Source of the DNA: a virus
Lineage: Duplodnaviria > Caudoviricetes
IMG/VR virus record: IMGVR_UViG_3300042881_004206
Strand: one strand, 5' to 3'
DNA length: 64,000 bases
Part shown: positions 25,066 to 28,575 of the stretch, piece by piece
Numbering within the stretch: position 1 is the first letter of the stretch
Layout of the letters: every line of letters starts with the position of its first letter
Made by a program: the position numbers and the translations under genes
Notes under the pieces: generated by a model
The model's input: the letters and a program-made list of their open reading frames with translations, nothing else
Told to the model about the DNA's origin: nothing
The model's database searches: none

Positions 25066-25094
25066 TTGACAACACACAAAACCCGTTGTATACT
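25066..25094 (+). promoter_or_regulatory. Sigma70 promoter of tRNA array
   Basis: TTGACA-17 nt-TATACT with TG extension. Confidence 0.75.
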
Positions 25095-25128: not shown

Positions 25129-25218
25129 GGAAACGTGTCCGAGCGGTTTATGGAACTGGTCTTGAAAACCAGCGTGTCAGAAATGGCACCGTGAGTTCGA
25201 ATCTCACCGTTTCCGCCA
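25129..25218 (+). tRNA. tRNA-Ser(UGA)
   Basis: Cloverleaf; CTGGT-CT TGA AA-ACCAG; long V arm; CCA end. Confidence 0.93.
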
Positions 25219-25223
25219 TTAAA

Positions 25224-25315
25224 GGTGAGTTGGCTGAGTGGTCGAAAGCAGCAGTTTGCTAAACTGTCCTCCTCTTTAAACGGGAGCATAGGTTCGAATC
25301 CTATACTCACCGCCA
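25224..25315 (+). tRNA. tRNA-Ser(GCU)
   Basis: GCAGT-TT GCT AA-ACTGT; long V arm; CCA. Confidence 0.93.
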
Positions 25316-25322
25316 AATCATC

Positions 25323-25412
25323 CCCGCCATAGCTCATGGAGAGCAGGAGCGCTTATAACGCTTTCGTCCAGATAAGACCCAGGATGTGGTTCGATTCCAC
25401 ATGGCGGGACCA
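25323..25412 (+). tRNA. Atypical tRNA with UAU anticodon (Ile) and long variable region
   Basis: Acceptor CCCGCCA/TGGCGGG; GAGCG-CT TAT AA-CGCTT; 21-nt V region; TTCGATT T-loop; ACCA. Confidence 0.75.
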
Positions 25413-25418
25413 AACAAA

Positions 25419-25496
25419 GGGCCGGTAGCTCATGCTGGTTAGAGCAGTGGACTCATAATCCATTGGTGGTCAGTTCGACTCTGACCCGGCCTACCA
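25419..25496 (+). tRNA. tRNA-CAU (Ile2-like or Met)
   Basis: GTGGA-CT CAT AA-TCCAT; C4:G69 and C5:G68 pairs as in lysidine-modified Ile2 tRNAs. Confidence 0.85.
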
Positions 25497-25502
25497 AATT
25501 TT

Positions 25503-25578
25503 GTATGCGTGACCCGAACGGTTAGGGAGCGGATTGCAAATCCGTTTTATGCAGGTTCGATTCCTGTCGCATACTCCA
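25503..25578 (+). tRNA. tRNA-Cys(GCA)
   Basis: GCGGA-TT GCA AA-TCCGT; U73; CCA. Confidence 0.92.
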
Positions 25579-25581
25579 ATT

Positions 25582-25657
25582 GCTCGGTTCGTCTATCGGT
25601 TTAGGACGCTAGCCTTTCACGCTGGAAAGACGGGTTCGATTCCCGTACCGAGTGCCA
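25582..25657 (+). tRNA. tRNA-Glu(UUC)
   Basis: CT TTC AC loop; cloverleaf; CCA. Confidence 0.92.
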
Positions 25658-25659
25658 TT

Positions 25660-25773
25660 TGTTTTGCTGATTGTAAGCCATGGGCTTGATCATGCCCGAG
25701 TAACTGTGTACATAATTGCGGTAATTCTAGACTATCCCGCATGAGCACAGCAAATAGTGCAGTCAGCAAAACA
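25660..25773 (+). ncRNA. Unassigned structured RNA in tRNA array
   Basis: Closed by perfect 11-bp TGTTTTGCTGA/TCAGCAAAACA helix; internal stems; no tRNA signature. Confidence 0.65.
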
Positions 25774-25776
25774 AAT

Positions 25777-25852
25777 GGGACGTTAGCTCAGTTGGTAGAG
25801 CAGTAGACTTTTAATCTATTGGTCGTGGGTTCGAACCCCGCACGTCCTACCA
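25777..25852 (+). tRNA. tRNA-Lys(UUU)
   Basis: GTAGA-CT TTT AA-TCTAT; CCA. Confidence 0.94.
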
Positions 25853-25857
25853 AATAA

Positions 25858-25942
25858 GGAGAACGAGAAGCATTGGTGACTTCAGCAGACTGTAAATCTG
25901 TCGCCTCAGGCATACGGGGTTCGAATCCCTGGTTCTCCACCA
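25858..25942 (+). tRNA. tRNA-Tyr(GUA)
   Basis: GCAGA-CT GTA AA-TCTGT; long V arm; CCA. Confidence 0.92.
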
Positions 25943-25978
25943 TGGCCTCATTGAGGCCGCCATATATAATGGTTCAAT

Positions 25979-26053
25979 TCCCTAGTAGCTCAGCGGTAGA
26001 GCAGCAGACTGTTAATCTGTTGGTCCGTGGTTCGATCCCACGCTGGGGAGCCA
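25979..26053 (+). tRNA. tRNA-Asn(GUU)
   Basis: GCAGA-CT GTT AA-TCTGT; G73; CCA. Confidence 0.94.
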
Positions 26054-26060
26054 GTTTTTT

Positions 26061-26138
26061 CGGGGTGTAGCACAGCCTGGTTAGTGCGCCTGCTTTGGGA
26101 GCAGGAGGTCGTGAGTTCGAATCCCACCACCCCGACCA
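26061..26138 (+). tRNA. tRNA-Pro(UGG)
   Basis: CCTGC-TT TGG GA-GCAGG; CCA. Confidence 0.94.
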
Positions 26139-26147
26139 TATTAAAAA

Positions 26148-26221
26148 GCCCCTGTAGCATGAAGGTCGTGCAGTTGCCTTGTAAGCATCAGGTCCGTGTT
26201 CGATTCACGGTGGGGGCACCA
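26148..26221 (+). tRNA. tRNA-Thr(UGU)
   Basis: CT TGT AA loop; cloverleaf; CCA. Confidence 0.9.
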
Positions 26222-26227
26222 GACTTT

Positions 26228-26302
26228 GGGCTGCTAGTGATAATGGGAGCACGCCGCCTTTGCACGGCGGAGGTTGGAGTTCGATCCTCCAGCGGTCCAC
26301 CA
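26228..26302 (+). tRNA. tRNA-Ala(UGC)
   Basis: CCGCC-TT TGC AC-GGCGG; G3:U70 present; CCA. Confidence 0.93.
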
Positions 26303-26306
26303 AGAA

Positions 26307-26495
26307 CGTGCCGTTTCGTCAACGGCTAGTCTGACCCGGACGATGAGAAGGTAGATGACGTCTACAGGGTGGTTCTGGTCCTACCGAACCAGCGCTGGCA
26401 ATGCGAGAACGGGACCTGTTGGGAAGCGGGTGGAAGGTGCAAGTGATGGCCTGCAGGCTTGATGCACTATAATTACCGCCAGGGTCCGTCAGAGC
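26307..26495 (+). ncRNA. ~190-nt multi-stem structured RNA (candidate manA-RNA-like motif)
   Basis: GC-rich non-coding stretch between tRNAs with at least six stems and long-range TCTGAC/GTCAGA pairing; family assignment is tentative. Confidence 0.65.
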
Positions 26496-26499
26496 ATAT

Positions 26500-26575
26500 G
26501 GTGATATAGCTCAACTGGTAGAGCACCTCCTTCATACGGAGACGGTTGTAGGCTCGGATCCTACTATCACCACCA
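26500..26575 (+). tRNA. tRNA-Met(CAU), elongator type
   Basis: TT CAT AC loop; paired G1:C72; non-canonical T-loop CTCGGAT; CCA. Confidence 0.85.
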
Positions 26576-26583
26576 AATTTCAC

Positions 26584-26658
26584 ACCGACATAGCTCAGCG
26601 GTAGAGCAGCGTCTTGATAAGGCGTTGGTCGGTGGTTCAATCCCACCTGTCGGTACCA
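26584..26658 (+). tRNA. tRNA-Ile(GAU)
   Basis: GCGTC-TT GAT AA-GGCGT; CCA. Confidence 0.93.
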
Positions 26659-26682
26659 TCGATTAAATATAAGGAGAATAAT

Positions 26683-26859
26683 ATGTCGGATGGAGGTAAA
26701 GGTTCTTCACCGAGACCGTATAGTGTCTCACATGAAGAATTTTCAAAAAATTGGGACAATATCTTTAAGAAAGATAAAGAACCAAAAAACGAAGAAGTAG
26801 AAGATAAATTAACTAGAAACAATGAAGAAACTCAATATATAAAGAGTATATCTCGCTAG
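26683..26859 (+). CDS. Small hypothetical protein
   Basis: AAGGAG RBS; MSDGGKGSSPRPYSVSHEEFSKNWDNIF; stop lies inside tRNA-Trp 5' end. Confidence 0.65.
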   Translation: MSDGGKGSSPRPYSVSHEEFSKNWDNIFKKDKEPKNEEVEDKLTRNNEETQYIKSISR

Positions 26860-26923
26860 TGTAACGGCAGCATACCGGTCTCCAAAACCGTTGGTCGGGG
26901 TTCGAATCCCTGGCGAGGTGCCA
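26850..26923 (+). tRNA. tRNA-Trp(CCA)
   Basis: CT CCA AA loop; acceptor ATCTCGC/GCGAGGT; GCCA. Confidence 0.9.
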
Positions 26924-26938
26924 ATAGAAAGGTTTATT

Positions 26939-27421
26939 ATGTTAAAACTCAACATTCAAGAGGTTAAGGATTTTATTCAATCACAAAGTCCGGATACTAA
27001 AATTTACCTTGGTGCAGACTCGGAAAGATTTCATATGAATGGTAAATGGTATGCTGATTACACTCTTGCTGTTGTAGTTCATATTGATGGTCGACATGGA
27101 TGTAAGATATTTGGTGAAGTTCATCGTGAGTTGGATTATGATCACAAGAAAAGCAAACCTGCTATGCGATTGATGAATGAAGTTTATAAAGTAGCAGATT
27201 TGTTTCACCAATTAATTGATGTGTTGGAAGATAGACATGTAGAAGTTCACCTGGATATTAATCCAGATGAGCACTATGGTTCTTCTTGCGTGGTGCAACA
27301 AGCAATAGGTTATATCAAAGGTACATGTGATGTTGTACCAATGGTGAAACCAAAAGCATTTGCTGCTTCATATGCAGCAGATAGACTGAAACATGTGATG
27401 GCTATGGCAAAAGTTGTTTAA
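26939..27421 (+). CDS. RNase H-like protein (YkuK/DUF458 family)
   Basis: IYLGADSE, YTLAVVVH, RLMNEV, EVHLDIN and FAASYAAD; ATG 26939 after GAAAGG. Confidence 0.75.
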   Translation: MLKLNIQEVKDFIQSQSPDTKIYLGADSERFHMNGKWYADYTLAVVVHIDGRHGCKIFGEVHRELDYDHKKSKPAMRLMNEVYKVADLFHQLIDVLEDRHVEVHLDINPDEHYGSSCVVQQAIGYIKGTCDVVPMVKPKAFAASYAADRLKHVMAMAKVV

Positions 27422-27422
27422 T

Positions 27423-27497
27423 GGTGTCTATGGTGTAGTGGAAGCATTGCTCTCTGTGAAAGAGTAGGTACGAGGTCGGTACTCGTTAGACACCCCA
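27423..27497 (+). tRNA. tRNA-His(GUG)
   Basis: 8-bp acceptor with G-1:C73; CT GTG AA loop; non-canonical T-loop GTCGGTA. Confidence 0.88.
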
Positions 27498-27512
27498 AAA
27501 TAAGGATTAATT

Positions 27513-27752
27513 ATGAAACCACTAGGTAATAATGTTATTGTGAAACGTGCAGAAAAAAATCTGACAACAGGTTCAGGTATTATTTTGCAAAGAAGTGATG
27601 AAGCCGATTATGGTGTCGTAGTGAATATTGGACCTGATGTTGTTGATGTGTCGATTTCAGACAAGGTACTGTTGGATTGGAATAAAGCACTTCAAATCGA
27701 TAAAGAAAATTATAAAATTTCAATTGATAGTATTATTGCTATCATTGAGTAA
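27513..27752 (+). CDS. Co-chaperonin GroES/gp31-like
   Basis: MKPLGNNVIVKR, TTGSGIIL and GVVVNIGPDV. Confidence 0.88.
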   Translation: MKPLGNNVIVKRAEKNLTTGSGIILQRSDEADYGVVVNIGPDVVDVSISDKVLLDWNKALQIDKENYKISIDSIIAIIE

Positions 27753-27759
27753 ATTTTAA

Positions 27760-27833
27760 GCCTCTTTAGTTTAATGGTAAAACTCCGCCCTTACAAGACG
27801 GTTACGGCAGTTCGATTCTGTCAAGAGGCACCA
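27760..27833 (+). tRNA. tRNA-Val(UAC)
   Basis: CT TAC AA loop (one C-A mismatch in stem); CCA. Confidence 0.9.
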
Positions 27834-27844
27834 GGAGAGATAAA

Positions 27845-28036
27845 ATGTACATAGAAAGCATCCAAAAACTTTTTACCATTTGGCCTGTTTATACTAAAGA
27901 AACGGTATACAAAACATTGGTGGATCCTGTGACGGATAAAAAAGTTGTTGACATTGTGACTTATTATGTGTATAATGACAAAGCAAAAATTGATACGAAT
28001 GAAAACAACAAAACAAACATTGATGTAAAAGTTTAG
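27845..28036 (+). CDS. Small hypothetical protein
   Basis: AGGAG RBS; 63 aa; stop overlaps first base of tRNA-Leu. Confidence 0.55.
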   Translation: MYIESIQKLFTIWPVYTKETVYKTLVDPVTDKKVVDIVTYYVYNDKAKIDTNENNKTNIDVKV

Positions 28037-28112
28037 CCCCGGTGACGGAATTGGTATACGTGTTGGTCTTAGAAGCCAAATTTTAGGAGTTCGACTCTCC
28101 TCTGGGGCACCA
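28036..28112 (+). tRNA. tRNA-Leu(UAG) lacking long variable arm
   Basis: TTGGT-CT TAG AA-GCCAA; V region only ATTTT; A73; CCA. Confidence 0.85.
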
Positions 28113-28118
28113 AATAAA

Positions 28119-28193
28119 CTGGCCGTAGTATAATGGAGAATACAGTTGCCTTCTAAGCAATCAATCCAGGTTCGATTCCTGGCGGCCGGACCA
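28119..28193 (+). tRNA. tRNA-Arg(UCU)
   Basis: GTTGC-CT TCT AA-GCAAT; CCA. Confidence 0.92.
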
Positions 28194-28198
28194 GATAT

Positions 28199-28283
28199 GC
28201 GACTGTGGTGAAATAGGTAGACACAAGAGACTTAAAATCTCTCGACTTCGGTCGTGCCGGTTCGATTCCGGCCAGTCGCACCA
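28199..28283 (+). tRNA. tRNA-Leu(UAA)
   Basis: AGAGA-CT TAA AA-TCTCT; V arm CGAC-TTCG-GTCG; CCA. Confidence 0.94.
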
Positions 28284-28296
28284 TATATAGTAGTAT

Positions 28297-28370
28297 GCGG
28301 GATTAGTTTATCGGTAAAACGAAACCTTGCCAAGGTTTAGTGACCAGTTCGACTCTGGTATCCCGCTCCA
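28297..28370 (+). tRNA. tRNA-Gly(GCC)
   Basis: AAACC-TT GCC AA-GGTTT; U73; CCA. Confidence 0.93.
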
Positions 28371-28388
28371 AATATACCATAATAATTC

Positions 28389-28416
28389 TTGACTCTACAA
28401 ATTTTTCTGTTATAAT
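28389..28416 (+). promoter_or_regulatory. Internal sigma70 promoter in tRNA array
   Basis: TTGACT-16 nt-TATAAT with TG extension. Confidence 0.6.
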
Positions 28417-28428
28417 TAATTCATAAAT

Positions 28429-28496
28429 GCGGTGTGTTGTAGAACAGAGTGGATGTCCAATTCACTTGCTTGGTGCAAACCCAAGACGCCGCTCCA
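28429..28496 (+). tRNA. Degenerate 68-nt tRNA-Gly(UCC)-like RNA
   Basis: Acceptor GCGGTGT/ACGCCGC plus TCCA; tiny D arm; 6-bp anticodon stem with loop TG TCC AA; T-loop TGCAAAC. Confidence 0.7.
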
Positions 28497-28500
28497 AATG

Positions 28501-28575
28501 CGCGGGATGGAGAAGTGGCAACTCGCCAGCCTCATAAGCTGGAGATCGCAGGTTCAAATCCTGCTCCCGCAACCA
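28501..28575 (+). tRNA. Initiator-type tRNA-fMet(CAU)
   Basis: C1xA72 mismatch, CGCGGG 5' end and TTCAAAT T-loop; lacks the three anticodon-stem G:C pairs. Confidence 0.85.

Follow-up and report, generated by a model that had tools for sequence, protein, structure and literature searches.

A conserved small RNA of phage tRNA arrays folds as a three-way junction and carries a strain-variable palindromic loop predicted to pair between copies

The 114-nt element at positions 25660–25773 of a 64,000-nt stretch of phage DNA (hereafter the window) is, with near certainty, a real RNA structure, and it belongs to an RNA family that is uncatalogued as judged against Rfam 15 and an incomplete literature. 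Its conserved core of 88 nt (25673–25760) is a three-way junction, and the apical loop of the longer arm, L3, very probably pairs over 6–8 bp with the L3 loop of a second copy, as covariation and a palindrome that differs between strains suggest. The element is enclosed by a helix that starts in the CCA end of the preceding tRNA and that also carries many unrelated RNAs in the tRNA arrays of related phages.

The window is part of a viral record of 156.6 kb (92% complete) whose polymerase and major head genes are T4-like. Among cultured phages, the closest capsid proteins are those of Melnitz, Mosig and DLP_6, at an identity of only ~65%. Twenty-two tRNA genes occupy positions 25129–28575 of the window, and the operon is headed by a sigma-70-like promoter (25066–25094; plus strand, as are all features described below unless stated otherwise) that is assigned by consensus match only, with 11 of 12 matching positions. 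As the initial annotation had reported, the 114-nt element sits between tRNA-Glu(UUC) (25582–25657) and tRNA-Lys(UUU) (25777–25852), with spacers of 2 and 3 nt, and possesses neither a T-loop nor an anticodon arm nor a CCA of its own; neither ARAGORN nor Rfam calls it. A protein-coding role was rejected, since no reading frame that extends across the element has a plausible start. The same array contains a TAT-anticodon tRNA of 90 nt with a long variable arm (25323–25412), which ARAGORN calls and Rfam does not, and DLP_6 likewise has an annotated tRNA-Ile(TAT) of 92 nt. tRNAs for Gln, Asp and Phe are missing from the calls in the 92%-complete record, while relatives carry them. A second conserved non-coding RNA of ~197 nt lies between tRNA-Ala and tRNA-Met (26303–26499); it has 58 matches including itself, is present also in arrays lacking the 114-nt RNA, and found no match in Rfam or cultured phages. 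Outside the window, the parent record holds a permuted two-piece tmRNA (G000:C1:48402–48775, minus strand), the tag of which, ANDEKFALAA, is a possible clue to the phage host.

Pattern scans of viral sequences returned at least 163 matches to the 114-nt RNA, representing at least 109 distinct cores. The first scan, based on the helix ends, returned many matches of 107–112 nt inside tRNA arrays; scans with inner motifs added more, and a relaxed viral scan gave mostly noise and two new members. The initial annotation had named a lack of conserved homologs as an argument against the element, and such homologs were found in many phages. Together with covariation in every helix, they bear out its central proposal of a conserved structured non-tRNA RNA within a phage tRNA cluster, for which co-transcription is presumed. 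The carriers are mostly uncultured T4-like and jumbo phages with sizes from ~150 kb to 525 kb, and the RNA lies mostly within their tRNA arrays: 134 of 144 loci examined had a tRNA within 300 nt, in every case on the same strand as the RNA, and none of the 144 contained two copies. The Rfam comparison that had been proposed for the 114-nt RNA matched no family, either at the element, elsewhere in the window with respect to the element, or in other members, at both gathering and E-value thresholds. BLASTN of two members against cultured phages gave no match, a model search of DLP_6, BUCT-ZZ01, BUDD, Melnitz and T4 found no member, and no cultured carrier is known. A scan of bacterial genomes also found none with a narrow pattern that would recover just 18 of the 109 known cores. 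No description of the RNA family or of its enclosing stem was found in the literature searched, which was incomplete.

When folded, the 114-nt RNA was clearly distinguished from shuffled sequences (z −4.15; none of 200 as good). The closing helix had originally been described as a perfect helix of 11 bp. The ends do pair perfectly over 11 bp, but the true helix is longer and runs from 25655 to 25778, with 21 pairs including wobbles, 16 of them Watson-Crick (z −7.35). The 5′ arm of this helix, which we refer to as the carrier stem, spans 25655–25672 and begins with the CCA of tRNA-Glu (25655–25657), while its 3′ arm (25761–25778) ends in G1–G2 of tRNA-Lys; both-side changes were seen in 13 of the 18 pairs of this outer part of P1. 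At two loci (L259 and L273) the same core is placed directly inside a carrier stem of the canonical type, which sets the core boundaries at 25673 and 25760.

In an alignment of 79 sequences, 93.4% of the cells of the three-way junction were paired and 28 of its 38 pairs showed both-side changes, with compensatory changes in every helix. The covariation in this alignment amounted to 0.433, as compared with 0.164 after shuffling and at most 0.083 after sliding. The 88-nt core alone folded no better than its shuffles (z −0.69), and its fold therefore rests on covariation. Nineteen columns are invariant, nearly all of them in or beside the junction, and in the window they fall into blocks at 25673–25677, 25701–25705 and 25749–25758. 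The P2 arm (25679–25700) consists of the pair 25679–25700 and a stem of 25682–25685 with 25694–25697 that is capped by loop L2 (25686–25693); its closing pair switches between C-G, G-C and U-G, and all three inner pairs covary. This stem takes the place of the AAGCC/GGCTT stem of the initial annotation, which the homologs did not support: 61.7% of its cells were paired, against 60.3% after shuffling, and both-side changes occurred in one of five pairs. The two other stems proposed there, CTGTG/CACAG and GCGG/CCGC, are backed by the homologs and correspond to P3a (25704–25709 with 25745–25750) and P3b (25717–25721 with 25737–25741) of the P3 arm (25704–25750). P3a and P3b are separated by an asymmetric internal loop (25710–25716 with 25742–25744) in which a 3-nt bulge is followed by an A·G and N·A tandem. 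In kink-turn numbering, position 2b is an A in 107 of 109 cores and a GA is present on the opposite strand in 108 of 109, whereas position 1b is mostly not the standard G (U in 87, G in 8, C in 8 and A in 6). Since most members lack this G, the loop is kink-turn-like or loop-E-like rather than a standard kink-turn.

The palindromes in both hairpin loops had escaped the earlier reading. In the window, the 15-nt loop L3 (25722–25736) bears the central palindrome UCUAGA (25726–25731), the predicted intermolecular kissing site. Across the family, L3 measures 10–18 nt, and 59 of 60 distinct L3 loops, delimited from the stems alone, had a palindrome of 6 nt or more (6–8 nt) at their centre, against a mean of 4.7 in shuffled controls that ignore kinship (standard deviation 2.1, maximum 16); the sole exception has an off-centre 8-mer. 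The palindromes comprise 12 different hexamers. Furthermore, the strongest covarying column pair of the entire alignment, 85–88, lies inside L3 and combines UA (33 sequences), GC (29), AU (12) and CG (3). As these columns are only two bases apart, they cannot pair within one molecule, and in combination with the palindrome their covariation points to a homodimer formed by kissing loops, as in the HIV-1 dimerization initiation site (DIS). Complementarity outward from the centre was found in 59 of 59 loops at each of the first three positions and in 44 of 59 (75%) at the fourth, and then fell to near background (10 of 55), a profile that fits a loop-loop helix, also in the length such a helix can reach, rather than the mutational perfecting of a hairpin. 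The calculated duplex energies averaged −13.0 kcal/mol for self-pairing and −4.6 for pairing between types.

The L3 palindrome also evolves faster than the rest of the molecule: 29 pairs of members with no more than one backbone difference carry different hexamers, and a tree built from the RNA minus its loops, though poorly resolved, called for 45 palindrome switches. Identical L3 loops occur on different backbones, so that recombination accounts for part, and probably for many, of these switches; the 12 hexamers nonetheless set a safe minimum of 11 inventions. A loop with a variable palindrome was sought in three further families of inserts from these arrays and was found in none. A reading of the palindrome at the DNA level, as a protein site or a restriction decoy, was rejected since its sequence is free to vary; 6-bp palindromes were not enriched genome-wide (2423 seen, 2534 expected).

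The smaller loop L2 carries the palindrome UGAUCA in the window (25687–25692), which may be a second self-pairing contact or a GNRA-like docking loop. A palindrome of 4 nt or longer occupied the centre of 25 of 34 distinct L2 loops, against 6.1 expected, with five different tetramers. In several lineages, however, L2 lacks a palindrome and is GNRA-like instead, and for this reason a second kiss through L2 is as easily doubted as believed. L2 and L3 are not complementary to each other and their types combine freely, which led us to reject a pseudoknot between L2 and L3 or an interlock of the type seen in packaging RNA. The two commonest L2 palindromes across the family are ACGT and GATC, despite the fact that the parent record is depleted in both tetramers (ACGT, 79 seen and 203 expected; GATC, 402 seen and 577 expected).

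As judged by comparing loci, core and carrier stem are independent of each other. In relatives, tRNA-Glu is followed by a CCA-started helix of 17–21 bp around the 114-nt RNA, around unrelated RNAs of ~80–255 nt, or around a bare 4-nt loop. Over all loci, CCA-started helices of at least 15 bp were present at 190 of 2657 distinct tRNA ends versus 7 in the control. In a set not chosen for the RNA, they followed tRNA-Glu in 17 of 22 cases, tRNA-Gln in 10 of 26 and tRNA-Lys in 10 of 23, and other tRNAs in at most four each; the Glu, Gln and Lys slots may share a common ancestry, so that they should not be read as three independent events per genome. These are the three tRNAs with a thiolated U34. 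On the sense strand of the carrier helices, G-U oppositions outnumbered A-C oppositions by 230 to 94, which favours pairing as RNA over inverted repeats of the DNA. The canonical 17-bp stem held ~110 distinct inserts of 4 to more than 200 nt, falling into ~77 clusters (219 and 154, respectively, with both strands counted). Carrier stems can be inspected in the arrays L002–L081 and at L118, L205, L044 (empty), L037:2201–2353, L007, L026, L143 and L100. A third insert family of ~175–220 nt resides in the carrier stem just after tRNA-Glu (L042, L130, L143 and L100); 31 of its 34 sequences are in loci that also bear the 114-nt RNA.

The carrier stem is probably a processing signal. Long helices made by the flanks of a stable RNA within a polycistronic transcript are known from the 16S and 23S rRNAs, which are enclosed by RNase III processing stems. 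The carrier stem resembles these in being a helix of about two turns around a cargo RNA on which it does not depend, and it differs in its length of only 17–21 bp, its start within the CCA of a tRNA, and its small, exchangeable inserts. By this analogy RNase III would be the likeliest enzyme to cut it, with the product of a PF04308 RNase H-like gene as the alternative. This gene lies within the tRNA array (26939–27421) and is conserved, with occurrences in at least 375 viral stretches as well as the array of DLP_6; its product is a candidate tRNA-precursor nuclease.

The RNA is an accessory gene. It was present in 7 of 50 related records, picked by a neighbouring protein, and in only one of four near-complete ones. 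One member (L387:730–844) is located between convergent protein genes, on a GC-rich contig that lacks tRNAs and has helicase and primase-like genes. Its closing stem is fully rewritten and GC-rich, while the core is near-identical to that of members of the L084 type. This suggests transfer of the RNA between unrelated phages, although it concerns a single contig that could be a chimera.

Taken together, these findings suggest the following course of events. Transcription would start at the 25066 promoter and cover the RNA together with the tRNA operon. A double-strand nuclease, likeliest the host RNase III or else the PF04308 protein, would cut the carrier stem of ~20 bp, and RNase P would free tRNA-Lys, thereby releasing an RNA of ~90–120 nt; release as a discrete species is likely. 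The core would adopt the three-way junction with its invariant centre and bent P3 arm, as the covariation demonstrates, and L3–L3 pairing over 6–8 bp, which covariation strongly indicates, would yield a symmetric dimer to which L2 may add a 4-bp contact. As a joint proposal, these four steps are on balance probable. Beyond this point we can only guess: the role we favour is that the dimer would present two invariant junctions and, being two-headed, act as a decoy for, or an inhibitor of, an RNA-binding protein or a defence nuclease of the host. Such a role would fit with the RNA being accessory, its junction invariant and its dimer symmetric, and we put it forward tentatively. A co-travelling partner ORF was sought and none was found, and the 92%-complete phage record contains no genes for TROVE (Ro60), L7Ae or RNase III proteins. 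The role as an antitoxin mimic or anticodon decoy that was suggested initially finds no support, given that the loops are variable and of 10–18 nt, that a tRNA-like domain is absent and that the Rfam antitoxin families were unmatched.

Several other readings deserve consideration. Conceivably, the RNA has no protein target at all and builds rings, cages or filaments in which phage tRNAs or other cargo are stored or shielded. Two independent palindromic loops and a kink would be apt for this purpose, RNAs of less than 200 nt can build cages and filaments by means of kissing loops and k-turns (10.64898/2026.07.01.735769), and one member (L130) shares its tRNA array with the large phage RNA GOLLD. 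However, with a plain GNRA-like L2, as in several lineages, there would be a single contact and a dimer only; the cages that have been described bridge several loops to different loops, and GOLLD was present in just one of 41 records. We consider such a scaffold unlikely. A comparably speculative idea, to which we also give rather little credence, is that diversifying selection acts on the palindrome as on a barcode of the strain, such that upon co-infection the RNA of each phage assembles only with its own kind, and that the carrier is a general cassette. If this were true, an RNA in which both loops kissed would be bivalent by nature and suited to assembling rings or filaments, and the carrier stem would let these phages attach dozens of interchangeable small RNAs to the CCA termini of tRNA-Glu, -Gln and -Lys.

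It is less probable that the RNA acts within the uncut tRNA precursor, where the kiss would join two primary transcripts and the stem would hold the tRNA ends, thus timing tRNA release. The stem does take in the CCA of tRNA-Glu and G1–G2 of tRNA-Lys, 56 members begin directly at tRNA-Glu, and carrier stems without an insert exist. Nevertheless, the upstream tRNA is otherwise variable (Glu, Ala, Asn or Leu), and members also occur away from tRNAs, as exemplified by L387 with its rewritten stem between protein genes. Rather improbable, too, is the notion that the junction is the core of a small-molecule aptamer or a ribozyme, with dimer formation merely assisting. The 19 invariant columns concentrated at the junction are reminiscent of riboswitch and ribozyme cores, and the RNA lies immediately 3′ of a tRNA, as do the theta ribozymes, which act directly 3′ of tRNAs. 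This notion is contradicted by the absence of Rfam riboswitch or ribozyme matches (E ≤10 in the window and E ≤5 in five other members), by the absence of an expression platform and a downstream gene, and by a motif order that, upon inspection, was unlike that of hammerhead, twister, pistol, hairpin and HDV-like cores.

Slightly fainter still is the prospect of a selfish or neutral cassette that spreads when carrier stems recombine with one another and whose palindrome is kept by template-switch mutation instead of selection. While this would account for the patchy presence in 7 of 50 related records, the hypervariable inserts and the sharing of loops between backbones, a decayed palindrome was seen in none of the 60 loops, complementarity ends sharply after 4 bp from the centre without spreading to the flanks, and the helices covary around an invariant junction. 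Finally, a prohead RNA of the phi29 type, which assembles into a ring at the portal to package DNA, can practically be dismissed despite the size of ~115 nt, the three-way junction, the long closing helix and the two loops for intermolecular pairing, since an RNA missing from three of four near-complete relatives is not pRNA-like, L2 and L3 vary independently and are not complementary, Rfam returned no pRNA match, and the phage is T4-like, a group that packages its DNA with gp17 and without RNA.

The homodimer reading can be set beside several known RNAs. The 114-nt RNA had initially been likened to RNA C and RNA D of phage T4. This analogy holds for position and size, as these RNAs of 139 and 119 nt, respectively, are likewise encoded in a T4-like tRNA cluster and have no known function. 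It does not extend to homology: the covariance model scored at most 6.4 bits over rnaC with filters off and nothing over rnaD, and the predicted folds differ, although by eye RNA D does have a few short words in common with the 114-nt RNA. Furthermore, the 114-nt RNA is without the T-arm-like hairpin at the end of RNA C and without the terminal CCA of RNA D. The pRNA of phi29, of ~115–120 nt, combines a three-way junction with a long closing helix and is essential; its left loop locks into the right loop of a neighbour. The architecture with two loops is shared, whereas the loops of the 114-nt RNA are self-complementary and independent of each other, and its gene is accessory. A relation to the bacterial Y RNA YrlA was rejected, as there was no tRNA-like domain, no match to RF02553 and no Ro60 (TROVE) gene in the phage record.

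The closest mechanical parallel is the HIV-1 DIS, in which a 6-nt loop palindrome pairs two RNA copies; the palindromes differ between strains, and discordant ones pair less well and reduce co-packaging 2.3-fold (PMC3605237). L3 shares with it a self-complementary 6-mer that is centred in a hairpin loop and flanked by unpaired bases. The DIS, however, belongs to a genomic RNA and has its role in packaging, whereas here we are dealing with a small RNA of a DNA phage; L3 is larger (10–18 nt), would pair over 6–8 bp and comes with at least 12 hexamers. The analogy is purely mechanical. In the literature we searched, which was incomplete, no small RNA of a DNA phage was reported to kiss through a palindrome that differs between strains. 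In its predicted mode of action the 114-nt RNA most resembles GOLLD (RF02032), ROOL and manA (RF01745), which are phage-encoded structured non-coding RNAs with kissing loops seen as covariation. GOLLD and ROOL, moreover, lie near tRNA islands (PMC12286853). A GOLLD RNA (189 bits) was detected at L130:311–775 on the minus strand, in an array shared with a member, and a tRNA call at 642–712 overlaps it. GOLLD, ROOL and manA form RNA-only oligomers. The 114-nt RNA, whose predicted kissing loops are likewise supported by covariation, matches none of them in sequence or covariance model, and has a much smaller core of 88 nt. The contacts of manA join different loops, L5 to L7′ and L8 to L9′ (10.64898/2026.07.01.735769), whereas in the 114-nt RNA each loop would pair with itself through a strain-variable palindrome. 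It is thus a member of none of these families, although it works most like GOLLD, ROOL and manA and mechanically like the HIV-1 DIS.

Few families of natural RNA-only oligomers have been described, the field being young, and no function is known for the ones found in phage tRNA islands. The present family is small (88-nt core) and easily transcribed, its intermolecular contact is legible from sequence alone, and its carrier stem suggests a release route for non-tRNA RNAs from phage tRNA arrays and leads to ~100 further uncharacterised inserts. With 12 interchangeable palindromes on near-identical natural backbones, it offers ready-made swaps for studying dimer specificity and oligomer geometry.
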